From an uncultured Anaerolineaceae bacterium (lineage in GTDB: Bacteria > Chloroflexota > Anaerolineae > Anaerolineales > E44-bin32), in NCBI GenBank assembly GCA_964475265.1, contig CAYYVY010000001.1, forward strand, positions 21,390 through 85,389: a stretch of DNA of 64,000 bases, read 5' to 3'. Below the pieces are notes generated by a model, which made no database searches, was not told where the DNA came from, and saw only the letters and a program-made list of their open reading frames with translations. A program made the position numbers and the translations under genes. The first letter of the stretch is position 1, and the number at the start of each line of letters is the position of its first letter. This document shows positions 4,565-51,900 of this stretch, in pieces.

Positions 4565-5743
4565 TTAACGATCTTTAAGCGGCCTCATGAAACCCCCAGC
4601 GGTACGCTGCGGAAGCGGGGTCATCGAGGCGCAGAATCGAAGTTCAATATCGTCTCCAGCGATGAAGGCGCCCGTGCGAGCTGCATGGGCGCTGACCTTT
4701 TCATGTGCGCTGGAGGGCATCTTCTCGAAGAGAAACAACTTCATTTGGGATGGATTACCCTGCTCGAAATCCCACACTCCGATGATTTTCCCGTCGAGCA
4801 AGATCGTGGCGGTGGCGTTGCCCGATCGATCGAAGACGTATTGGGTGTAACGTGGGTCGAGGTAGCGCTGGCGCGCTTGATATCCCATCAGATACGAATC
4901 CAGCATGGGGAGGAAATTGACGATCTCTTTCGAACCTGCCCCGGGTCGTTCGAGTTGTCCACGCCGCTCTCGGAGGATGATGTGAGTACCTTCCAGTCCG
5001 TCGATCTCGATCGCTTCGGTTTCACCCTTTAGGGAGTCGAGGGCGCGCCGGACTTTGGCCCTGGGAAGTCCGAACCACCAGTAAATATCTTCTTCGAGAA
5101 GCGGACCGAAGCCGGCCAGGTACTGCCGGACGAGTTCGGCCAGAGCCTTTTCTTCTGAGATCGAGTGTAGATCGACGTCCGGATAATACTTGTCGAACCG
5201 TCCGTAGCGAAAACTACGGTCGCGCCAGCTGCGAAGGGGTCTACGGCGCAGCAATAGGCCCAGGTCACACATGTGGTAGAGCAGCGCTGAAAGGTCGAGA
5301 TCCGTATCCAGGGCACGGCGCATCTCGGCGGCGGACCGATCTTCATCGTCCAACAGCCCGAGTACGGTTTGTGAAAGTCGCTTGAATGTTGTTTCGTCGA
5401 TGCCGCGCCGCAGCATGTAATTGCGGGAAGCGTCCCGGGTCAGGGATGCCGTGGCGGCGTACACCGTCGGCAGGTTCGAGCGTGCATGCACGTAGATCGT
5501 GGTGCGAACGCAGCGCACTTTGGCGAAGCTCGACCGGTCGTACAGCGCCTCGTCCAGCTGGTCTTTCTCGAAACCCGCGCTGCGGGCGAAAAGCGACAGG
5601 TAGGGCGTGGTCGCAACCGTGGCGTGCAACCCGACTACATCCTGGACGATTCGTTCGACGCTTTCCGATTTGGCGTGGGGCACTAGATGCTGCTTTTCGA
5701 GCAGGAAACGGTTCACGCGTTGAAGCGTCGCTATCGATGTCAT
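4565..5743 (-). CDS. winged-helix HTH_42 family protein (AlkZ/YcaQ-like putative DNA glycosylase)
   Basis: About 392 aa from MTSIATLQRVNRFLLEKQHL... Length and N-terminal pattern (LLxxQHL ... VVGLHATVATTPYLSLFARS ... FAKVRCVRTTIYV) resemble the YcaQ/AlkZ family. The ATG at 5743 overlaps the stop of the upstream permease as ATGA. Confidence 0.6.
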   Translation of the reverse strand: MTSIATLQRVNRFLLEKQHLVPHAKSESVERIVQDVVGLHATVATTPYLSLFARSAGFEKDQLDEALYDRSSFAKVRCVRTTIYVHARSNLPTVYAATASLTRDASRNYMLRRGIDETTFKRLSQTVLGLLDDEDRSAAEMRRALDTDLDLSALLYHMCDLGLLLRRRPLRSWRDRSFRYGRFDKYYPDVDLHSISEEKALAELVRQYLAGFGPLLEEDIYWWFGLPRAKVRRALDSLKGETEAIEIDGLEGTHIILRERRGQLERPGAGSKEIVNFLPMLDSYLMGYQARQRYLDPRYTQYVFDRSGNATATILLDGKIIGVWDFEQGNPSQMKLFLFEKMPSSAHEKVSAHAARTGAFIAGDDIELRFCASMTPLPQRTAGGFMRPLKDR

Positions 5744-6813
5744 CGATCCATCCGGGTGATCTTCCATACGACCAGCGCGAGCAGCAGTACAGCGCTTCCC
5801 AGAACGACCGCCAATGAAGTCGCGATCTGGCCCATCGTGGCGCCCGTCGAAAAAGCATATCGGAACACGAGCGAAAGCGCTACCGTCGGGAACCAGCCAA
5901 GCAGGTCCCGCACGACCTGGGGAAAGATGGGATCGATAGCAGAGAGGAAGAGGGAGATCAGTAAGGGCTGCGCCAGGATCATCATCCAGGTGTTCAACTG
6001 CTGCCTGTTTTCGAAGAGCACACCGAGCAGCAAGCCCAGTGCCACACCCAGCAGCGCGCCGCCGAGTAAGCCGAATAAGGCGATGCCCCAGTGGACGACA
6101 AAGGTCCAGTTGAATGCCAGCGCCGCGGAGGCAGTGACCAGTACGAAAACCAGACCGGCCAACGCTTTGCCGGCGACGACCTGGGGCACGCTGGCGGGCG
6201 AAACCAGCAATGAGTCCATGGTTTGGGTTTGTTTCTCTTCCATCATCAAATGCGGTGTGGTGAACAACCCGACGTAGAAGAGGGCATAAACGACGATCAA
6301 GGCGGTGAGGCGGAAATCGCCCATTGCGTCCGGCTCATAGTCGACGAGTTCATCGATTTCGATGCGCACAGGAATTCCGCTGAGCGACTCCAGCCGGCCT
6401 TCCACCTTCGCTTTCAAGGCGTCTGCGGAATTGCGCCGGCTCCAGAGCAGGAAGCCGCGCAAAACAGGCACGTTTCCAGACGTTGCAGCTTGATCGTAAT
6501 CTGCTGGGATGACCAGCCCGAGTGCTCCCTGGTCTCCGTCGTTCAACAGTTCGATTAACTCGGCCCGGGATGCGGCTTTGAAAAGACGGATATCTGGCTT
6601 ATCGGTTAACGATGCGATCAGGCTGGAATCGCCGGCATCGTAATAGGTCAGGTCCAGGCGATTCGGTTTCCACAGCCGGGGCGCGAATTTGATGAGCAGC
6701 AGCAGAAGAACGAGCACGCTCAGGTTGATCAGAATCACCCTGTTCTTGAGTGCGTCTGTGATGTCCTTGGCGGCGATGGCTACGATCGTGCGCAGGTCTT
6801 GTCGGTTCGTCAT
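5740..6813 (-). CDS. ABC-2 type transporter permease, paralog 4 (NatB-like)
   Basis: 357 aa with N-terminal AAKDITDALKNR, one TM helix, a loop of about 150 aa, the motif MMEEKQTQTMDSLLVSPAS, then five hydrophobic helices. Confidence 0.8.
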   Translation of the reverse strand: MTNRQDLRTIVAIAAKDITDALKNRVILINLSVLVLLLLLIKFAPRLWKPNRLDLTYYDAGDSSLIASLTDKPDIRLFKAASRAELIELLNDGDQGALGLVIPADYDQAATSGNVPVLRGFLLWSRRNSADALKAKVEGRLESLSGIPVRIEIDELVDYEPDAMGDFRLTALIVVYALFYVGLFTTPHLMMEEKQTQTMDSLLVSPASVPQVVAGKALAGLVFVLVTASAALAFNWTFVVHWGIALFGLLGGALLGVALGLLLGVLFENRQQLNTWMMILAQPLLISLFLSAIDPIFPQVVRDLLGWFPTVALSLVFRYAFSTGATMGQIATSLAVVLGSAVLLLALVVWKITRMDR

Positions 6814-6871: not shown

Positions 6872-7966
6872 TCATCGATCCATCCTGCGCACGCGCGCAG
6901 TTACCAGCAGCAGGAGCAACAGCGACGTGCCGACCAGGATGCTAAAGTTGGACACTAGACTTCCCAGATCGAGCGTCTTGGAGAACGACCCGCTGAAGAG
7001 TTCGACCATGGCGACAGAGGGCAGAAACGGTAGAATGGTTTGTACAAAGGGCGGATAATTGGCGACCGAGGTCGCAGCCAGGATGACGGGCACCATCAAC
7101 AGCATTAAAGCCAATCCCATGACCATGTTCATGTTGACCTGCTGCTCGAACAGCACACCGAACAGCAGCCCCAATGAAACGGTGAACAAGGCGGACGCCA
7201 GTACTGCCAGCAATGCGAGCCAGGCATTGGCCAGCAAGCTGGCATTCAGCGTGTACACGACAGCCACGGCGATGAAACAGTAGAACAGTCCGGACAAGGC
7301 TTTCCCGACGACGATCTGCCCGTAGCTGGCGGGCGAGACCAGCAGCGCTTCCATGGTATGGTGCTCCTTCTCTTCGATCATCAGCAGCGGAACGAGCGCC
7401 ATGCCGATGGTCAGTATTGCCACGACCAGCGATATACTGACCATGAAGGGATGTCCCCCCGACTGCAGCGTGGGGTAGACTACATTGTCATTCCAGATCA
7501 GGCTGATCTCCTGATCGAGGATTTCACTGAGCCGCAGCTCAAAAAAGGCGACCGTTTCGTTAACTGAGGCGCCACGCGTCGCGTAGGCGTAAAAAGCCTG
7601 CAATTCGAGCGGTGCTTCCAACTTTTCTGGAAAATCCTGCGGCAGCACCAGACCGATCGAGCCGCTGGTGGTTGCAGCGACCTGTTCTCGCATGGCTTCC
7701 TCGGAGGGCATGGTGATCAGTTGGAAACCGTCCCCTTGCCGGTGTTCTTGCACGAAGGTGGATTGCGACTCGTCGAACACGTACGCCCGCCGCTCGGGTC
7801 GTAGTTTCAGCATCAGGGGCATCAATTGGCCGGAAAGTACGATCATGCCCACGCCCAGGATGATCGAGATGCTCAAGCGATTTTTAATGGCGTCGGAGAT
7901 GTCTTTGCTCGCCACTGCCAGCACGATGTGCATCCATTCCGTTCGTACATTGCCTTTCTTCCGCAT
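6872..7966 (-). CDS. ABC-2 type transporter permease, paralog 3
   Basis: 364 aa with ASKDISDAIKNR and MIEEKEHHTMEALLVSPAS. Topology matches its neighbours. Confidence 0.8.
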   Translation of the reverse strand: MRKKGNVRTEWMHIVLAVASKDISDAIKNRLSISIILGVGMIVLSGQLMPLMLKLRPERRAYVFDESQSTFVQEHRQGDGFQLITMPSEEAMREQVAATTSGSIGLVLPQDFPEKLEAPLELQAFYAYATRGASVNETVAFFELRLSEILDQEISLIWNDNVVYPTLQSGGHPFMVSISLVVAILTIGMALVPLLMIEEKEHHTMEALLVSPASYGQIVVGKALSGLFYCFIAVAVVYTLNASLLANAWLALLAVLASALFTVSLGLLFGVLFEQQVNMNMVMGLALMLLMVPVILAATSVANYPPFVQTILPFLPSVAMVELFSGSFSKTLDLGSLVSNFSILVGTSLLLLLLVTARVRRMDR

Positions 7967-8034: not shown

Positions 8035-9135
8035 TTATTGCTCCATGCGCCGCAGCAGCCAGCGATCCAACAGGAAGAAAACCAGGCCCCAGACGACCAT
8101 GATGAATATGGACTGCAGATAGGAGTCCAAATCTACGCTGGCGGTGAGTGACTGTGCCGCGGCGTTGCCCATGGCAACCGTTGGAATCCAACGCATGGCG
8201 GCGCGCAGCCCTGCGGAGACCGGCTCAAAGATTCCCAGTATCATACTGATGATCAGCGGCTGGAAGATGATGAAGGTCCATAAATTAATCTGGCGCACGT
8301 CATTCAGTCGGATACCCAGGAGCAGCCCAATAGAGACGATGAAGAACGCCGCGCATATTATCGTTCCGATCATGGCCCACCAATGCAGCACAAAGCTGCC
8401 GTAGGCGATTAATACCGCGCTGCTCATCAGGATGCAGTACACTGCCCCGACCAGTACTTTGGCGGTCAGCAGCTCCGCCATTGTGATCGGGGAAACCCGC
8501 AGGGCATCGATCGTGCGGTTGGTTTTCTCTTCGACGATGAGCTGTGGGGTGACTGTCATGCCCATTAGCCCCATCACGATCAGAAGTCCGAAGGCGATGG
8601 AAAAGGCAAAGCTGCTTTCTGGCCGGGTAAGGATTTGACGATCGAGGTGGAGTTCGACGTGCGCACCGGACAGTGAAGCGATCTCGGCTTCGATTCGCGT
8701 CTGCATGGCGGCCTCGTCTTCGTCACTTACCCAGTGATCGATCAACGCCTGCACCTCGATCGGCTCGCCGCTTTGGGCACGCTGATCGAAGTCCGCCGGT
8801 AGGATCAGGCCCATTGCGATCCTATCTTCGATGCCAACCTGGTAGCGTAAGTCTTCGTAGGATTCGGCGATGCGCAATTTGATAGCTTCACTGCGGCTGA
8901 GGTCTTGAACCAATGCTGACTCATCGGCGTCATATACCACCAGAAGAGCTGGAGAATTGGCGTTGCCGATGACGGGTAAGAAGCGGTACAACGCGACCAG
9001 GAAGGCGATCGTGAGCACGTGATTAATCATCTGACGGCGTTTCAGCCCGTCGACGAAGTCTTTGCTGGCGATAGTCCAGATCAGGCGCAGCCTCGAGACA
9101 CGGGTTGTCGTCGAAGATTCCTTTATGTTATCCAT
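8035..9135 (-). CDS. ABC-2 type transporter permease, paralog 2
   Basis: 366 aa with ASKDFVDGLKRR and IVEEKTNRTIDALRVSPIT. It overlaps paralog 1 by 8 nt. Confidence 0.8.
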   Translation of the reverse strand: MDNIKESSTTTRVSRLRLIWTIASKDFVDGLKRRQMINHVLTIAFLVALYRFLPVIGNANSPALLVVYDADESALVQDLSRSEAIKLRIAESYEDLRYQVGIEDRIAMGLILPADFDQRAQSGEPIEVQALIDHWVSDEDEAAMQTRIEAEIASLSGAHVELHLDRQILTRPESSFAFSIAFGLLIVMGLMGMTVTPQLIVEEKTNRTIDALRVSPITMAELLTAKVLVGAVYCILMSSAVLIAYGSFVLHWWAMIGTIICAAFFIVSIGLLLGIRLNDVRQINLWTFIIFQPLIISMILGIFEPVSAGLRAAMRWIPTVAMGNAAAQSLTASVDLDSYLQSIFIMVVWGLVFFLLDRWLLRRMEQ

Positions 9136-10234
9136 TTGCTCGATCCTTTCGGCGCAGGATGACGAGGATGATGATGTAGAGCACGGCCACCCATCCGAGG
9201 AGTAGTGCGGAATTCCATACCAGGGGTTGCATGGGTACCGGATTCGTAAATGCGGCGCGCACCAGGTTGATTAAGGTCACAGACGGTGTCAGACGCAGCA
9301 GGGTCAGAATTCCTGCTTTGAGGAAGGATCCCAGGGTGACCAGCAGTGCCGGGATGAGCATGGCGAACATGAGTAGGAATCCCCAGAGCGTCATTTGCTG
9401 CTTGGTCTCCATGGCGGTGCCAACGAGCAGGCCTACGGCGACGAAGAACAACGCGCCGCTCAAGCAGGCCAGGATGGCAGCCCACCACTGTGTGACCAGG
9501 GCCGCATTGATGCAGAAAGTGAGAAGGCCGGCGAGGACGGCGATCGTGCCGCCGGTGATGACCTTCGCGATCAGGATTTCAAGCTGCGTTGCCGGTGATA
9601 CCATCAGCGAGTCCAGCGTGCGGGTTTGTTTTTCCTCGAAGATCAAATGCGGCACGATGTACATGCCCCCCATGGAAAGCGCCAGCAGTACCGTCAATGA
9701 GGTCAAGAAAGCGTAGCCGCCCGAGTCTATCCGGGTGTAAAGCGTGTGGCCTTCCAGATCGAGGTGAACATCTTGGCCCAGGTCGTTGCCCAATGTTCCT
9801 TCGAAGTAACTGCGGATCGAGCCGGCAGCCTCATCTGAAGCCCAGTGGATGACATATGCGTCCAGGGTTACGCTCTCTCCGCTTTCGATGCGTCGATCGA
9901 AATCCTCAGGTAGAACCAGGCCGAGTACGATGAAATCCCTGTCCGCCACATAACGTTCCATTTCACCCATAGAGGCAGTGGCTACGAGGTCGTAGTTGGT
10001 GTCGGCATCCCACTGGGTAATCCATTGTGAGTTTCCCTGGTCGTAGACGACCAGGCGGGGAGGCGTTTCACCGCTCTCGAATTCGGGCAGAAAACGGTAA
10101 AGCCCAACCATCATGAAAACCGAAAACATCAGGCTCAGGATGTTGCGGTTCTTGAACGCATCGAGCAGGTCCTTGGAGGCGATCGTACCGATAACCCGGA
10201 GGTTTATTCCGTATCGTTTCATGGTGTGCCTCAT
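9128..10234 (-). CDS. ABC-2 type transporter permease, paralog 1
   Basis: Motifs ASKDLLDAFKNR and IFEEKQTRTLDSLMVSPAT. The start is ambiguous: in-frame ATGs lie at 10288, 10264, 10234 and 10222. The ATG at 10222 has a GAGG 7 nt upstream. The longest ORF would overlap the ATPase by 38 nt. Confidence 0.75.
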   Translation of the reverse strand: MRHTMKRYGINLRVIGTIASKDLLDAFKNRNILSLMFSVFMMVGLYRFLPEFESGETPPRLVVYDQGNSQWITQWDADTNYDLVATASMGEMERYVADRDFIVLGLVLPEDFDRRIESGESVTLDAYVIHWASDEAAGSIRSYFEGTLGNDLGQDVHLDLEGHTLYTRIDSGGYAFLTSLTVLLALSMGGMYIVPHLIFEEKQTRTLDSLMVSPATQLEILIAKVITGGTIAVLAGLLTFCINAALVTQWWAAILACLSGALFFVAVGLLVGTAMETKQQMTLWGFLLMFAMLIPALLVTLGSFLKAGILTLLRLTPSVTLINLVRAAFTNPVPMQPLVWNSALLLGWVAVLYIIILVILRRKDRANG

Positions 10235-10250
10235 TTTCGATCTTGCCGGA

Positions 10251-10979
10251 TCAATATAGTTCATTTCCGGTGAGTTTGATAAAGACATCTTCCAGCGTGG
10301 TTCCTTCGCCTTCGCCGTGCTCGGCTTTCAGCGTAGCTGGGCTGTCGATGGCGACAATCTGTCCCTGATGGATGATTGCCACCCGGTCACTCAAGCGGTC
10401 GGCTTCCTCCATGTAGTGGGTAGTAAGGAAGACAGTCACGCCTTCTTCTGCTAATTTCTCGACGATACTGCGGATTCCGCGCGCCACACCCGGATCCAAG
10501 CCTCGGGTAGGTTCGTCTAGAAAGAGTACCTTGGGTTGATGCAGCAGCGCCCGGGCGATGAGTAGTCGCTGCTTCATGCCGTTGGAGTAAGTCTTGATTT
10601 TGTCCTTGGCACGATCAAGCAGCCCTACCTGCGCCAGCGTCTCGTCGACACGGCGTTTGGGCACGCCGTACAGTCGTGCTGAAAATTGCAGATTGTCGCG
10701 GGCGGAGAGGCGCTCATATAGATTCTGATACTCGAAGACCACGCCGATCTGCGGTTTTAGCTGCTGGCGTCCCTCGACGACGTCGCAGCCGACGACCTGG
10801 GCCGAGCCGGAGGTCGGCCGCAGTTGCCCGGTGAGGACTTTGATGGTGGTCGATTTTCCGGCGCCGTTGGGGCCGAGAAAACCGAAGACCTCGCCGTACT
10901 CGACCTCGAAACTGATGCCCCGCACGGCTTTCACGCCTTTGTAGTAGCGGTGCAGGTCTTGGACTTGAATGGCTTTCAT
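10251..10979 (-). CDS. ABC transporter ATP-binding protein (canonical NBD)
   Basis: Walker A GPNGAGKST, signature YSNGMKQRL, Walker B VLFLDEPTRGLD, H-loop LTTHYMEEA. AGGAG lies 9 nt upstream of the ATG. Confidence 0.9.
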   Translation of the reverse strand: MKAIQVQDLHRYYKGVKAVRGISFEVEYGEVFGFLGPNGAGKSTTIKVLTGQLRPTSGSAQVVGCDVVEGRQQLKPQIGVVFEYQNLYERLSARDNLQFSARLYGVPKRRVDETLAQVGLLDRAKDKIKTYSNGMKQRLLIARALLHQPKVLFLDEPTRGLDPGVARGIRSIVEKLAEEGVTVFLTTHYMEEADRLSDRVAIIHQGQIVAIDSPATLKAEHGEGEGTTLEDVFIKLTGNELY

Positions 10980-11226
10980 CTCGTGTTACTCCTATGTGCC
11001 GGATGTGTTCGGGTCACCATGGATTGCGTTTGGATTTGGCCTAACGATACACATAGAAAGAGGGTGCTGCAATAAATTGCCGCCGAACGGCGGATTTTCG
11101 AAGTTGAATGGTGCACTGGTGGGGATCAGTGGAGAGGAAAATTACCCAAAAACTTCGTTAAAACAGCCAACTTTGGACAAAGCCACGTCCGTGTGGTGAG
11201 GTCGTACCGCTTTCTATGGGGTTGGT

Positions 11227-12222
11227 TCAATAGCCAAGCAAGTCTTTGAGTTCGGCAGCCGCGGTTTTACTGAGGGGAATCAGCGTGGCTTCCGAGTCGT
11301 CGAGGCGCAGGGAAAAGCTGTTGCGCGTGAAGGGTATGACTTCGGTGACGTGCTGCAAGTTGACCAGGTAGCCGCGGTGGGCGCGGAAAAAACCGCTGCG
11401 CGCCAAGCGTGTTTCGAGTTCGGACAGCGTGAATTGCGTGGGCAGCCGTTCGCCGTCCGTGGTATGCAAATCGGCGCGCCCTTCTTCAACGTCGGCGTAA
11501 ATGATGTCGGTGGGATTGATCAGAGCGACTCGTCCTTCCAGTTTCACCGGGATCTTAAACGGCGTGGAGATCTGGCGTTCTTCGCCGGGTTTGAAGGTTG
11601 ATTGGATGCGCCCCTCATTGAGCGTATGGATCGTGTTGCAGATCGGTTCGAGCAGCGTGCTGTCGTCCGCCAGAATGAGCACTGCAGTGCCGCGTTCGGA
11701 GAGGGAGCATATTAAATCGGAGAGCAGGTCGATGGATGATTTGTCACAGCGGGCAAACGGCTCTTCCAGGATCAACGCCTCCGGGTCGTGCAGGATGGCG
11801 CGTCCGAAAGCCAGGCGTCGTTGGAGACTGGATGACAACTTGGCCAATCTGGATTTGCCGTGATCGGCAAGCCCGACTCGCAGCAGGGTTTCCTGCGCTT
11901 TGGACTTCGGAAGGCCGTGCAGTGTGCCGTGGAACTGCAGGTTGGCGAACGGCGAACGCTGCTGGTAAAGTCCGTCTTCGGCGAATAGAAAACCGACGCG
12001 GCGGCTGTAATCCTCGCGATCCGCGATGGGATCAAGTCCTGCCACCCGCAGTGTACCGCTGGAGGGGCGTGATTTGCCCGTCAGCATGGCGAGCAGTTCG
12101 ATCTTTCCGCTGCCTACCGGACCGACCAAGCCCACGACCTGACCGGCCAAGATCTTCAACATCGAGATGTCGACCGCCGTGCGTTGCCCCGTGGTCTTCT
12201 GCAGATTTTTCAGTTCAATCAT
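11227..12222 (-). CDS. degenerate ABC-type nucleotide-binding domain fused to a C-terminal LytTR DNA-binding domain
   Basis: From MIELKNLQKT. Walker A reads GPVGSGKI (Ile where Ser/Thr is expected). The signature reads LSSSLQRR, Walker B reads LILEEP, and no H-loop His is present (LILADDS). The C-terminus IIYADVEEGRADLHTTDGERLPTQFTLSELETRLARSGFFRAHRGYLVNLQHV matches the LytTR pattern. Confidence 0.75.
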   Translation of the reverse strand: MIELKNLQKTTGQRTAVDISMLKILAGQVVGLVGPVGSGKIELLAMLTGKSRPSSGTLRVAGLDPIADREDYSRRVGFLFAEDGLYQQRSPFANLQFHGTLHGLPKSKAQETLLRVGLADHGKSRLAKLSSSLQRRLAFGRAILHDPEALILEEPFARCDKSSIDLLSDLICSLSERGTAVLILADDSTLLEPICNTIHTLNEGRIQSTFKPGEERQISTPFKIPVKLEGRVALINPTDIIYADVEEGRADLHTTDGERLPTQFTLSELETRLARSGFFRAHRGYLVNLQHVTEVIPFTRNSFSLRLDDSEATLIPLSKTAAAELKDLLGY

Positions 12223-12346
12223 GGCCGTTGGCAGGATCGGATGATGACTACATTCTAGCGTCATTTTACCAAGAAGGCACGTGAGTGCAGGCATCTCAGA
12301 TTACGATTTGGTGTTGTTATTTACAACGGTAATGAAGGAGGAGAAC

Positions 12347-13201
12347 GTGTCTAAAATCGCGATCGTCACCGACAGCGACGCCAGTCTGCCCGTAGATGTG
12401 GCCGCAAAGTGGGGTATCGTACAGGTTCCTGTGAACGTTCATTTTGGCGAGGAAACGTTTCGGACGAGCGTAGACATCGATGAGGTTGCTTTATTCGAGC
12501 GTATCGATCGCGAGGGTGCCCTGCCTACAACCTCCGCGCCGGCGCCCGGCGTGTTCATGCAGACCTTTCAGGACGTGCTGGATGGAGCTGCCGACTCGAT
12601 CGTGTGTTTCTGTGTCAGCAGCGAAGTGAGCGCCATTTACAGCGCGGCGTGCACGGCGCGCGATTCGATGCCGCGAAAGGACATCGCCGTCGTCGACACT
12701 CGCACGTTGAGCATGAGCCAGGGCTTCATGGTCTTGGCTGCGGCGGAGGCTGCAGCCGGCGGTGCTTCGAAAGAAGAAGTCATCGCCCATGCGCAGGACG
12801 TCGGCGCGCGCTCGCATCTATTTGCCGCCCTGGCGACACTGAAGTACCTGGCGATGAGCGGGCGCGTGGGTCACGTGGCGGCGGGCATTGCCAACGTGCT
12901 CAACGTCAAACCGATCCTCACCATCCGCGACGGGAAATTGGACTTACTCGAACGTGTGCGCACGCAAGGCAAAGCGTTCGAGCGCGTCGTCGAGCTGGCA
13001 GTGGAGGCTTCCGGCGGGAAAGCCATCGAACGCATGGCTATTATCCACGTTATCGCGGAAGAAGCCGCGCAACGATTCGAAAGCCAACTGCGTGAAAGTA
13101 TGGATTGCCCGCAAGACATCTTGCTGGCCGGGATGACGGCCGGACTTTCCGTACATTCGGGCGCCGGGTTGGTGGGCGTGACGTTCGTGGTCGAAGGTTG
13201 A
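12347..13201 (+). CDS. DegV family fatty-acid-binding protein
   Basis: (V)SKIAIVTDSDASLP is a typical DegV N-terminus. The GTG at 12347 lies 5 nt after AAGGAGG (12335-12341). An alternative ATG lies at 12332. Confidence 0.8.
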   Translation: MSKIAIVTDSDASLPVDVAAKWGIVQVPVNVHFGEETFRTSVDIDEVALFERIDREGALPTTSAPAPGVFMQTFQDVLDGAADSIVCFCVSSEVSAIYSAACTARDSMPRKDIAVVDTRTLSMSQGFMVLAAAEAAAGGASKEEVIAHAQDVGARSHLFAALATLKYLAMSGRVGHVAAGIANVLNVKPILTIRDGKLDLLERVRTQGKAFERVVELAVEASGGKAIERMAIIHVIAEEAAQRFESQLRESMDCPQDILLAGMTAGLSVHSGAGLVGVTFVVEG

Positions 13202-13307: not shown

Positions 13308-14024
13308 CTATCGATGATCGTCGTAATACTGTAGAGCACGCAGGTATTCGTCTTCATCGAAATCCGGCCAATAAACATCGGCGGCGTATAAAGTGGCGCC
13401 GGCGCTCTGCCAGAGTAGAAAGTTCGAAAGGCGCATTTCTCCCGCCGTGCGTATGATGAGATCCGGATGCGGCTGACCGGCGGTGTAGAGCTGCTGCTCG
13501 ACGAGGCTTTCGCAGATGGCCTCTGCCGGGGTCCCTTCGCGCAGAATTTCTCGGATGGCGTTGGCAATCTCCGCACGGCCGCCGTAGTTGAAGGCGATGT
13601 TGAGTATCAAATTCTGGTTGTCACGCGTGAGATCGATCGCTTTACGGACGTTGCGCTGCGTGGACGGGGGCAAACCCTGCAGCGTTCCAAGGTGCCGCAG
13701 TTGGACGCCTTCTTTGTGCAGTTCGGGCAGCTCGCGCTCTAGAAAAGGGTCGATGAGCGCAATCAAGCCTCTGACTTCTCCCTTCGGGCGTTTCCAATTC
13801 TCGGTGGAAAAGGCGTAAATCGACAAGTACCGGACGCCGGTTTCGACCACGACGCGTATGACTCGGCGCAAATTCTCGACGCCGGCGCGATGACCGGCGT
13901 GACGCGGAAGACCGCGAGCACGCGCCCAACGCCCGTTGCCGTCCATGATGATGCCGATGTGCTGCGGCAGCGTTCGAATCGGTGTTTGGAGATGACTCGG
14001 GATTTTTGTGAGTGTGTCGACCAT
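13308..14024 (-). CDS. uppS: isoprenyl transferase (undecaprenyl-diphosphate synthase family)
   Basis: HIGIIMDGNGRWA, plus SIYAFSTENWKRP, ...RTAGEMRLSNFLLWQ. Confidence 0.9.
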   Translation of the reverse strand: MVDTLTKIPSHLQTPIRTLPQHIGIIMDGNGRWARARGLPRHAGHRAGVENLRRVIRVVVETGVRYLSIYAFSTENWKRPKGEVRGLIALIDPFLERELPELHKEGVQLRHLGTLQGLPPSTQRNVRKAIDLTRDNQNLILNIAFNYGGRAEIANAIREILREGTPAEAICESLVEQQLYTAGQPHPDLIIRTAGEMRLSNFLLWQSAGATLYAADVYWPDFDEDEYLRALQYYDDHR

Positions 14025-50883: not shown

Positions 50884-51900
50884 GTGAACTGGCAAGATTC
50901 ATTTAAGGGTGATTCACTCTCCTGGCTGTTGGAAGCCGAATCGCCGGGCGTTCGTTACCTGGCGCTGCGTGATCTGGTGGACGAGCCCGCTGATTCCGCG
51001 GCGTTGAGGTCCGCCCGGGAAGCGGCACACCGCAAAGGTCCCATTGCATCGCTTCTGGCTGAGATGCACGCGGAAGGCTACTGGGTTGAACCGGGACCGG
51101 GCTATCGCCCCAAATATCGCAGCACGGTCTGGGCGCTCATCCTGTTGGCCCAATTGGGTGCAGCGGCAGATCGAGATACGCGTGTCGCCCGGGGGTGTGA
51201 ATACGTCCTCGCCAATACGCTTTCCCCGGGAGGTCGCTTCAGTATCACGGGCGCGCCCTCGGGGACTGTGGATTGCCTGCAGGGCAACATGTGCGCCGCA
51301 CTGGTTGATCTGGGTTGGGAGGACGAACGGCTTGATGCGGCGTTCGAGTGGATGGCGCGCAGCGTGACCGGAGAGGGCGTCGCACCGATGAGTGAGAAGA
51401 AGGCCGAGATACGCTATTACGCCGGAAAATGCGGGCCGGACTTCGTCTGCGGGGCGAACAATAACCTGGCCTGCGCCTGGGGTGCGGTAAAGGTGATGCT
51501 GGCGTTCGCCAAGCTGCCGGCTGAAAAGCGGACGCCGTTGATCAAACGGGCGATCACCCGCGGGGTGGATTTCCTCTTCAGCGTCGATCCGGCCTCGGCG
51601 GAATACCCGCACGGTTATACGGATAAGCCGAGCGGTAACTGGTGGAAGTTTGGTTTCCCCGTGTTTTACGTGACGGACTTGCTGCAGACCGCAGAAGCGC
51701 TCGTGCGGCTGGGTTATGGGGGTGATCCACGTCTGAAGAATACCCTGCATATTATCCGCCAGAAACAGGATGAGCAAGGGCGCTGGGCACTCGAATACGA
51801 TTATGCCGGGAAGACCTGGCTGGATTTCGGTGTCAAGAAAATGCCGAACAAGTGGGTGACGCTGCGGGCACTGCGGGTTCTCAAGCAAACCTGTGATTGA
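50884..51900 (+). CDS. alpha/alpha-toroid (prenyltransferase / squalene-cyclase-repeat-like) protein, unknown function
   Basis: The GTG at 50884 is preceded by GGAGGG with 5-nt spacing. Repeated W/Y-rich helical-hairpin units are visible (EGYWVEP, STVWALILLAQLG, QDEQGRWALEY). The family assignment is from memory only. Confidence 0.4.
   Translation: MNWQDSFKGDSLSWLLEAESPGVRYLALRDLVDEPADSAALRSAREAAHRKGPIASLLAEMHAEGYWVEPGPGYRPKYRSTVWALILLAQLGAAADRDTRVARGCEYVLANTLSPGGRFSITGAPSGTVDCLQGNMCAALVDLGWEDERLDAAFEWMARSVTGEGVAPMSEKKAEIRYYAGKCGPDFVCGANNNLACAWGAVKVMLAFAKLPAEKRTPLIKRAITRGVDFLFSVDPASAEYPHGYTDKPSGNWWKFGFPVFYVTDLLQTAEALVRLGYGGDPRLKNTLHIIRQKQDEQGRWALEYDYAGKTWLDFGVKKMPNKWVTLRALRVLKQTCD

Follow-up and report, generated by a model that had tools for sequence, protein, structure and literature searches.

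The 64-kb window analyzed here (64,000 nt of contig CAYYVY010000001.1, from an uncultured Anaerolineaceae bacterium) contains a gene for a fusion protein, in which a degenerate nucleotide-binding domain (NBD) of the ATP-binding cassette (ABC) type, hereafter the pseudo-NBD, is followed by a LytTR DNA-binding domain. The gene is located next to an ABC-2 exporter operon, and its product is very probably a one-component activator of this operon, expressed from a transcription unit of its own; this reading is drawn from sequence comparison, since the operator repeats, their LytTR activator geometry and the linkage of the fusion to the exporter are all conserved. The main new result is a regulatory region, conserved among loci, that separates the fusion gene from the gene of the canonical ATPase. 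The fusion would be a LytTR one-component regulator with a pseudo-enzyme as a new input domain, together with a defined predicted operator and target.

Three 9-bp direct repeats (R1-R3, consensus CCATTCANC), placed 21 nt apart from start to start, occupy the spacer between the two genes (Table 1). They were found by comparing this spacer among loci, using close relatives and then the locus L010 (74% identity), which has the same blocks; a search for repeats within the single sequences of both spacers flanking the fusion gene (10980-11226 and 12223-12346) gave nothing convincing, and an exact search across loci with the 14-mer of the hairpin described below had no match. A 10-mer core, GCCGTTCGGC, gave positional matches across loci, from which the repeat model was derived. 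The comparison relied on 85 Chloroflexota loci (numbers prefixed by L), in which open reading frames (ORFs) were called and searched with the proteins of the window. The pattern CCRTTY-N15-CCRTTY occurs only once in the window, at the operator, with 0.21 matches expected by chance; it is found in 43 of the 85 loci, and in 38 of the 85 the match is on the coding strand, after the stop codon of the fusion and before the exporter genes. About seven independent off-target matches over all flanks of the 85 loci correspond approximately to the chance rate. In L001-L003 and in L015 the repeat pair is not located behind the fusion, but in front of the displaced exporter genes (at 19249-19275 in L001-L003); the predicted operator is thus seen to move with the exporter operon where the fusion is unlinked from it. 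Alignment of 37 sites gave GCTCCATTCAnC - GCnCCATTCnnC - GCGCCGTTCGGC - TTTTTTGTTGCA. Second matches to the pattern, present at about 17400 in L004 and L005, are not conserved in the window.

The region following the repeats contains the two most conserved blocks of the spacer, TTGCAG and TATCGT, across loci sharing 50-93% protein identity; these are predicted to be the -35 and -10 elements of the exporter promoter, and they are followed by a GGAG ribosome-binding site and by the start codon of the ATPase gene at 10979. In the published arrangement of LytTR activators, 9-bp repeats with a 12-bp spacer are placed about 10 bp ahead of the -35 hexamer (PMC6193735), and the same layout, with 9-bp repeats, spacers of about 12 bp and a distance of about 10 bp from the predicted -35, is found in the window. 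Furthermore, the AlgR sites CCGTTCGTC and CCGTTTGGC resemble the operator 9-mer and especially R3 (PMC4064291): R3 matches the former at eight of nine positions, while the copy of R3 in L010, CCGTTTGGC, is identical to fimU-ABS1 (PMC4064291).

The same organization was found by direct reading of the spacers in all four Bacillales loci examined, where the repeats are again located 9 nt from a weak -35 hexamer. In Paenibacillus, the repeats GCTCCATTCAC, GCTCCAAACCC and GCTCCTTTCAC (at 7084, 7105 and 7126) are followed, 9 nt on, by ATGCGG-17-TAGGAT; Sporosarcina has CCACTGAAC, CCACTTACC and CTATTCATC at 7100, 7121 and 7142, Paenalkalicoccus CCATTTAGG and CCATTTAGC at 7014 and 7035, and Oceanobacillus CCATTCACC and CTTTTCATA at 7124 and 7145. 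The -35 hexamers of the Bacillales loci are poor (ATGCGG, ATGTCG and CTGATT). The position of the predicted operator, from about -95 to -45, and such poor hexamers, above all those of Bacillales, fit an activator.

A repressor could also be imagined, which would occupy R1-R3 together with the adjacent T-tract and the -35 element until a signal removes it, as CoxC does. Indeed, CoxC, a LytTR protein devoid of a receiver domain that binds three direct repeats, is a repressor (PMC11347149), and R3 ends just 9 nt from the -35 hexamer; however, the operator of CoxC overlaps the -35, whereas R1-R3 lie wholly upstream of it. Poor hexamers like those of Bacillales are typical of activator-dependent promoters, and the geometry of the repeats equals that of the activators of the LytTR regulatory systems (LRS; PMC6193735), so that repression has little probability.

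The arrangement of the spacer also bears on the transcription of the fusion gene itself. R3 is part of a GC hairpin with a T-rich run after it, so that one sequence is apparently both a terminator and a binding site; the T-run is conserved in most loci, and the hairpin probably terminates the fusion transcript as well. Pairing in the stem is preserved by paired changes (CCGCC/GGCGG in the window vs GCGCC/GGCGC in L010, at about 11131-11145), and in L001, which has no gene ending shortly before them, both the hairpin and the T-run are weaker. The original prediction, made from the letters of the window alone, had described the fusion as heading the exporter operon; this description needs correction, because the terminator-like hairpin and a separate predicted promoter intervene between the two. 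It had also pointed to both flanking spacers as sites of regulation, which agrees with the LytTR-type predicted operator in 10980-11226 and does not extend to 12223-12346, where no operator was found. Indeed, at the stringency of the pattern applied, no repeat pair was detected upstream of the fusion gene, either in 12223-12346 or in the 85 loci; therefore, nothing points to a positive autoregulation like that of the LRS.

Linkage of the fusion to an exporter is nearly constant. Seven of the 85 loci end too early to be judged; of the other 78 Chloroflexota loci, whose flanks suffice, 73 have a canonical NBD gene and one to four ABC-2 permease genes after the fusion gene on the same strand. The exceptions are L001-L003, which represent a single lineage and have the exporter 8.6 kb away from the fusion gene, L015, a decaying locus with an interrupted fusion gene, and L054, which has a glutaredoxin-like gene after the fusion. 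All four Bacillales loci, having unrelated flanks, share a core formed by the fusion, a canonical NBD of 282-284 residues and one ABC-2 permease, hence the module is conserved across two phyla. In the window the gap between the fusion and ATPase genes, which are on the same strand, is 247 nt (10980-11226), and no small membrane-protein gene was found after the fusion gene, the next gene being the canonical ATPase. The permeases are of the ABC-2 type and the conserved module contains no kinase, which sets it apart from flux sensing of the Bce type, with its FtsX-type permease bearing a large extracellular domain and its BceS-like intramembrane-sensing kinase. These data agree with the original prediction as to the 247-nt gap, the canonical ATPase and the four permeases on the same strand; its central proposal, that the fusion is a transcription factor linked to the exporter downstream of it, is strengthened by the gene order in both phyla and by the predicted operator in the spacer. 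It had also proposed a survey of the domain pair and of its neighborhoods, which revealed both domains throughout the family and a conserved order of fusion, NBD and permease.

Table 1. Features of the fusion locus and of the adjacent exporter operon, in positions of the window.
Feature	Position	Strand	Basis or detail
Pseudo-NBD::LytTR fusion gene	11227-12222	minus	ORF call; 331 residues plus stop; ATG at 12222, stop at 11227-11229
Pseudo-NBD, residues 1-215	11578-12222	minus	Pfam, NCBIfam, BLASTP, AlphaFold2, Foldseek
Degenerate Walker A, GPVGSGKI (Lys present, Ile at Ser/Thr)	12100-12123	minus	direct sequence reading
LytTR DNA-binding domain, residues 224-331, including FFRAHRGYLVNLQHV	11230-11553	minus	Pfam PF04397
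Predicted operator repeat R1, CCACTGATC	11124-11132	minus	21 nt upstream of R2; (G)CTCCA(T/C)T(C/G)A in 37 aligned loci
Predicted operator repeat R2, CCATTCAAC	11103-11111	minus	part of the CCRTTY-N15-CCRTTY match
Predicted operator repeat R3, CCGTTCGGC	11082-11090	minus	9 nt upstream of the -35 hexamer
GC hairpin CCGCCGTTCGGCGG with T-rich run, terminator-like for the fusion gene, overlapping R3	11080-11093	minus	terminator scan
Predicted exporter promoter: -35 TTGCAG (11067-11072), 17-nt spacer, -10 TATCGT (11044-11049)	11044-11072	minus	conservation and geometry only
Canonical DrrA-type ABC ATPase gene, all motifs intact	10251-10979	minus	ABC_tran E 1.6e-35; TIGR01188 (drrA) E 1.7e-84, 284 bits
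Four ABC-2 permease genes	9128-10288, 8035-9135, 6872-7966, 5740-6813	minus	Pfam ABC2_membrane_3, ABC2_membrane_2
AlkZ-like DNA glycosylase gene	4565-5767	minus	PF06224 E 1.6e-51; 28-nt overlap with the last permease gene
Divergent spacer between fusion and DegV-family genes, presumably with the fusion's own promoter	12223-12346		alignment of loci

Both halves of the protein are recognized by their profiles, as the original prediction had maintained. Residues 22-157 match ABC_tran (Pfam, E 1.5e-18, 68 bits; cut-off 25), and residues 231-329 match LytTR (PF04397, E 2.4e-21, 76.2 bits; cut-off 22.6) along positions 2-97 of the 98 of the profile, which assigns the protein to the LytTR family. ABC_tran and LytTR were the only domains recovered in the Pfam search, which gave no Response_reg match; the N-terminal half is thus an ABC_tran domain and not the receiver, with its phospho-acceptor Asp, of a two-component LytTR response regulator. 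Among the NCBIfam families the nearest to this half are the DrrA-type exporter ATPases, with 110 bits against an equivalog threshold of 312. The AlphaFold2 model has a mean predicted local distance difference test (pLDDT) score of 94.7 and includes both domains: a complete NBD fold at residues 1-215 (pLDDT 95-98 in the block 1-210), a short linker of low confidence at 217-220 and the LytTR beta-fold at 224-331. In this model, the N-terminal half presents the RecA-like core and the helical subdomain of an NBD; Foldseek superposes it on the NBDs of LptB, MacB and FtsE, with a root mean square deviation (rmsd) of 2.1-2.5 Å over about 220 residues, and found no solved protein with the pair of ABC-NBD and LytTR domains. 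The closest solved sequence to the LytTR half is 3D6W, a LytTR domain (E 2.7e-9). Within this half, the segment FFRAHRGYLVNLQH is nearly all invariant across the family, as are positions 277-291 in a spread of 14 sequences.

The homologs of the fusion mostly share the MIEL start. An upstream extension of the ORF to 345 or 355 residues is possible (12223-12294, minus strand), and the homologs P0001 and P0002 are annotated at 345 residues; the added part overlaps with a block, GGTAAAATGACGCTAGAAT, that is unchanged in four of the five closest loci under comparison and has one mismatch in L008, and this block may be the promoter or 5′-untranslated region of the fusion gene.

The NBD half has lost the motifs required for catalysis. 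Their positions were set by a gapless BLASTP alignment of the fusion with the neighboring canonical NBD (30% identity over 211 residues, E 1e-36), which proved the earlier readings of the motifs (GSGKI, LSSSL, LILEEP and the loss of the H-loop His) to be exact. Walker A is GPVGSGKI vs GPNGAGKS in the neighbor, with Ile in place of Ser/Thr; the Q-loop has D83 vs Q85, the signature LSSSL vs YSNGM, Walker B LILEEP vs LFLDEP (E153 for Asp), the D-loop ARCD vs RGLD and the H-loop D186 vs H188. The fusion thus departs from an active NBD at the Walker A consensus GxxGxGK[ST], the Walker B Asp, the Q-loop Gln, the H-loop His and the LSGGQ signature, and its NBD is almost certainly unable to hydrolyze ATP, judging from these replacements.

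This degradation is a family-wide trait, shared by more than 120 clusters of Chloroflexota, and no local accident, which bears out the label of pseudo-ATPase first given to the protein. Columns were counted in the best 120 of 2854 matches in a collection of 5.8 billion proteins, at 59-92% identity. In these Chloroflexota relatives the glycines of the P-loop and its Lys are kept (GPxGSGK; Lys in 112/120), while the Walker A Ser/Thr column is variable, the commonest residues being S, A and D (36, 20 and 16 of 120). The Q-loop Gln is replaced by Asp in 119/120 and the Walker B Asp by Val in 90/120; Asp or Glu takes the place of the H-loop His in 107/120, and the signature follows the pattern L[PS][SP]GL. 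Alignment of 30 distant fusions, down to about 30% identity, revealed an intact signature or H-loop in none of them, with Walker A ranging from intact (for example, P0135 and P0121) to unrecognizable. In the consensus of the Bacillales clade the P-loop is wholly lost ('VAIHSSxNVR'), the signature is LSYSE, Walker B is IFEEP and Asn stands at the H-loop His; the D-loop Asp is kept in both clades. Nucleotide binding may persist in the Chloroflexota clade, because the P-loop Lys survives there; since it is lost in Bacillales, ATP binding is not the general signal. In the 14-sequence spread D83, C159, D160 and D187 of the fusion are invariant, and the fixation of such replacement residues indicates purifying selection on a non-catalytic function. 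Two cysteines are near-invariant in the Chloroflexota clade, C159 in the D-loop ARCD (119/120; window about 11746-11748) and C195 (107/120; about 11638-11640); neither occurs in canonical NBDs or in the Bacillales clade, and a redox or metal role is conceivable. A pseudogene or a mis-assembly was considered as the origin of the fusion and rejected, on account of the size of the family, the invariant new residues and the high-confidence fold.

According to the proposed model, the C-terminal LytTR domain would bind R1-R3 and activate the weak promoter TTGCAG-17-TATCGT, which would drive the canonical ATPase, the four permeases and the AlkZ-like glycosylase, while the fusion gene would have its own upstream promoter region and be parted from the exporter genes by the hairpin and T-run overlapping R3. 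The input domain would be a paralog of the DrrA-type ATPase of the exporter, which has kept the NBD fold and lost hydrolysis. Given the DrrA origin, the constant co-occurrence with the ATPase and a fold devoid of its chemistry, the simplest reading of the pseudo-NBD is a retained protein-protein surface: it may use ancestral NBD contact surfaces, either those of the permease docking groove or those of the NBD-NBD face, on the cognate permeases or on the real NBD, and such a docking or pairing is plausible. The amount of regulator free for DNA would then be set by the state of the transporter, being held at the idle transporter and released upon substrate engagement, with the outcome of an exporter-coupled induction without any histidine kinase. 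As a whole, this explanation, a LytTR activator of the exporter promoter with a dead NBD paralog as exporter-coupled input, is held to be evenly balanced between right and wrong. The more specific proposal, that the pseudo-NBD senses the conformation or the occupancy of the exporter, through competition for the docking site of the NBD or through pairing with the real NBD, and that this represents a widespread, kinase-free 'transporter-as-receptor' control, is advanced tentatively, as one that has the balance somewhat against it.

Several points weigh against this model. That the pseudo-NBD touches the transporter is purely inferential, and the residues conserved in the NBD half are mostly those needed by any NBD fold. 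Retention of the P-loop differs between the two clades, so that a single input mechanism is not assured for the whole class. Conservation of R3 could derive in part from the RNA structure rather than from protein binding, a strict scan for the sigma-70 consensus called no promoter in 10900-12450, and another LytTR protein of these genomes could in principle bind the repeats.

A different input is also conceivable, in which the LytTR activator remains as proposed and the pseudo-NBD is a self-association or ligand-binding module, independent of the transporter. Head-to-tail homodimers or oligomers, gated by ATP in Chloroflexota or by direct binding of the exported compound, might align the LytTR domains on the tandem repeats, in parallel with the dimerization of AgrA or ComE through their receiver domains. 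NBDs are natural dimerizers, and GPxGSGK, with its Lys, is kept in the Chloroflexota clade; moreover, the regulator of L001-L003 is unlinked from exporter genes and yet apparently intact. LytTR regulators do need oligomerization to fill tandem repeats (PMC6193735). However, the absence of a P-loop in Bacillales means that an ATP-driven dimerization is not general, every member has a degenerate signature, the motif by which the ATP sandwich is closed, and the presence, almost without exception, of a linked canonical NBD from the same DrrA subfamily is more simply explained if the two systems interact. A module of this kind is considered unlikely, although it is the main alternative.

The fusion may also be mainly a subunit of the transporter, its pseudo-NBD pairing with the canonical NBD or filling one NBD site of the permease dimer, as a stable structural component that would brake or tune transport, and its LytTR domain tethering the protein or regulating only secondarily, by analogy with NBDs that bear C-terminal regulatory domains, such as those of MalK and MetN. 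The pseudo-NBD and the neighboring NBD belong to one NBD subfamily, the D-loop Asp is kept in both clades, and Foldseek aligns the whole fusion to MalK, CysA and MetN, which have beta-rich regulatory domains at the C-terminus; the C-terminal halves are not superposed in these alignments, with rmsd of 9-13 Å. Nevertheless, all motifs are degenerate on both faces, so that a heterodimer would have no canonical composite ATP site, which makes a productive catalytic heterodimer unlikely; the conserved operator, having the exact LytTR geometry, argues for DNA binding as the main output, and the fusion gene is apparently a separate transcription unit. A role mainly in transport is consequently improbable.

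The exporter-coupled activator proposed here can be compared with several known systems. In MalK-MalT, in the flux sensing of BceAB-BceRS and in Pst-PhoU-PhoR, transport genes are transcribed in response to the state of an ABC transporter; MalK, for instance, sequesters the activator MalT at the idle transporter. In all these cases a real, active NBD or a permease signals to a separate regulator or kinase, unlike the fusion, which would have a decayed NBD paralog built into the transcription factor itself. Known asymmetric ABC exporters keep one consensus ATP site. The heterodimeric exporters TM287/288, TAP, CFTR and Rv1273c/72c (PMC7756269, PMC12038006) resemble the fusion in having catalytic residues of Walker B, the H-loop or the signature replaced with the fold kept, and they differ from it in that only one composite site is degraded and the other canonical, the NBD remaining a transport subunit. 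In the fusion, instead, all motifs on both faces are degenerate and a DNA-binding domain is attached.

The LytTR response regulators, such as NatR of the NatK-NatR/natAB system of Bacillus subtilis, AgrA, AlgR and ComE, share with the fusion the output domain and the operators made of tandem direct repeats; NatR also controls an ABC-2 type exporter. However, they possess a phospho-accepting receiver and a cognate histidine kinase, and the fusion has neither. The LRS of Streptococcus mutans and others (HdrRM, BrsRM, SMU_433/434 and SMU_1070c/1069c; PMC6193735) comprise a LytTR regulator without receiver or kinase, share with the fusion locus the 9-bp direct repeats, their 12-bp spacers and a position about 10 bp ahead of the -35, and in two of their types are genetically linked to ABC transporter genes; the LRS regulator is restrained by a membrane component, and the same logic is proposed for the fusion. 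On the other hand, an LRS is made of a small LytTR-only regulator and of a separate, co-transcribed membrane inhibitor (DUF3021 or DUF2154), whereas the fusion carries a covalent, soluble pseudo-ATPase of 215 residues and the inhibitor gene is absent, which places it outside the LRS; in addition, the repeats of an LRS precede the operon of the regulator itself, giving positive autoregulation, while those of the fusion are downstream of the regulator and upstream of the exporter only. Finally, CoxC (MHYT-LytTR) and RcoM (haem-PAS-LytTR) likewise have a non-receiver sensory domain N-terminal to LytTR and control the adjacent operon (PMC11347149), but their input is a gas-sensing membrane or haem domain, while that of the fusion is a dead ABC ATPase, combined with an activator geometry.

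The module is recurrent, and uncharacterized, in hundreds of Chloroflexota and Bacillales genomes. The best 120 of the 2854 matches all have both domains, are about 330 residues long and come from Anaerolineales and other Chloroflexota; 205 stretches in species-representative genomes encode a relative of the fusion, and a HMMER search over 1.84 billion cluster representatives recovered full-length relatives down to about 30% identity. In the Bacillales clade both domains are present in 120/120 top matches, the carriers including Sporosarcina, Oceanobacillus, Ornithinibacillus, Virgibacillus, Paenibacillus and Cytobacillus, among others. The two Pfam domains of these relatives are already visible in databases, where the proteins go under the name of 'LytTR family transcriptional regulator DNA-binding domain-containing protein' or under that of 'ABC-2 type transport system ATP-binding protein'; the many relatives bearing the latter name almost certainly are no such thing, and their annotation should be amended. 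A literature search found no paper on the ABC-NBD::LytTR architecture, although an early mention in Nikolskaya and Galperin 2002 or in Galperin 2010 is possible.

Receiver domains, membrane inhibitors and MHYT or haem-PAS sensors are all known to accompany LytTR regulators; if the model is correct, a dead transporter motor absorbed into a transcription factor would represent a new kind of input module and a clear example of a pseudo-enzyme recruited for signaling. The system is compact, with one regulator, one defined predicted operator and one exporter, and it is present in cultivable Bacillales (Sporosarcina, Oceanobacillus and Paenibacillus); thus, the possibility that the cell senses in this way whether the exporter is busy can be tested directly. 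The operator consensus may be used for the prediction of regulons and for the construction of reporters. In the window, matches with one mismatch to the operator at 51325 and 59221 were rejected as members of the regulon, being at chance level.

The neighborhood of the fusion offers some further observations. The AlkZ-like glycosylase gene is probably the last of the exporter operon, and its gene order is identical in L004-L006; a homolog recurs beside the fusion in loci of different organization, namely L001-L003 (7640-8812, minus strand) and L042, L043 and L060, where it lies just upstream. AlkZ-type enzymes repair lesions produced by genotoxic natural products, and this function, together with the recurrence of the gene, suggests that the exporter substrate may be a DNA-damaging compound, a hint that some of these exporters handle natural products of this kind. 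The other flanking genes of the window are a divergent one of the DegV family (12347-13201, plus strand) and that of the undecaprenyl diphosphate synthase UppS (13308-14024, minus strand); they are probably outside the module, since their synteny is limited to the closest relatives, L004-L008.

Individual loci depart from the common organization in other ways. In L015 (9974-15526) the fusion ORF is split by a stop codon and an extracytoplasmic function (ECF) sigma factor, a zf-HC2 anti-sigma factor and a DUF7544 gene are inserted, while the NBD has shrunk to a remnant of 30 residues joined to a permease; the repeat pair remains upstream, at 13787-13813. In L054 (4045-4836) the repeat pair is followed by the glutaredoxin-like gene, the only case seen of the operator fronting a non-ABC gene. 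In L010 (11160-11706) about 540 nt, containing short ORFs, separate the conserved promoter from the ATPase start; one of the ORFs resembles a small membrane peptide (MNFDEHQKEELKQQYQGKGMGIGMALFMPFGVILWLLL...), and they may be extra small genes of the regulated operon. Some Chloroflexota genomes contain two paralogous modules of fusion and exporter, the pairs being L042/L049 (CP070708.1), L011/L043 (DUEZ01), L072/L081 (DUET01) and L015/L055 (VRUJ01), which prompts the question of how operators so nearly identical escape cross-talk.

As for the occurrence of the locus in sequencing runs, it was matched in DNA runs, from salt-marsh metagenomes, and in no RNA run; one salt-marsh metagenome run covers 99% of the sampled words of the window and ten other runs cover it partly. 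The closest relatives of the window are metagenome-assembled genomes of Anaerolineales.

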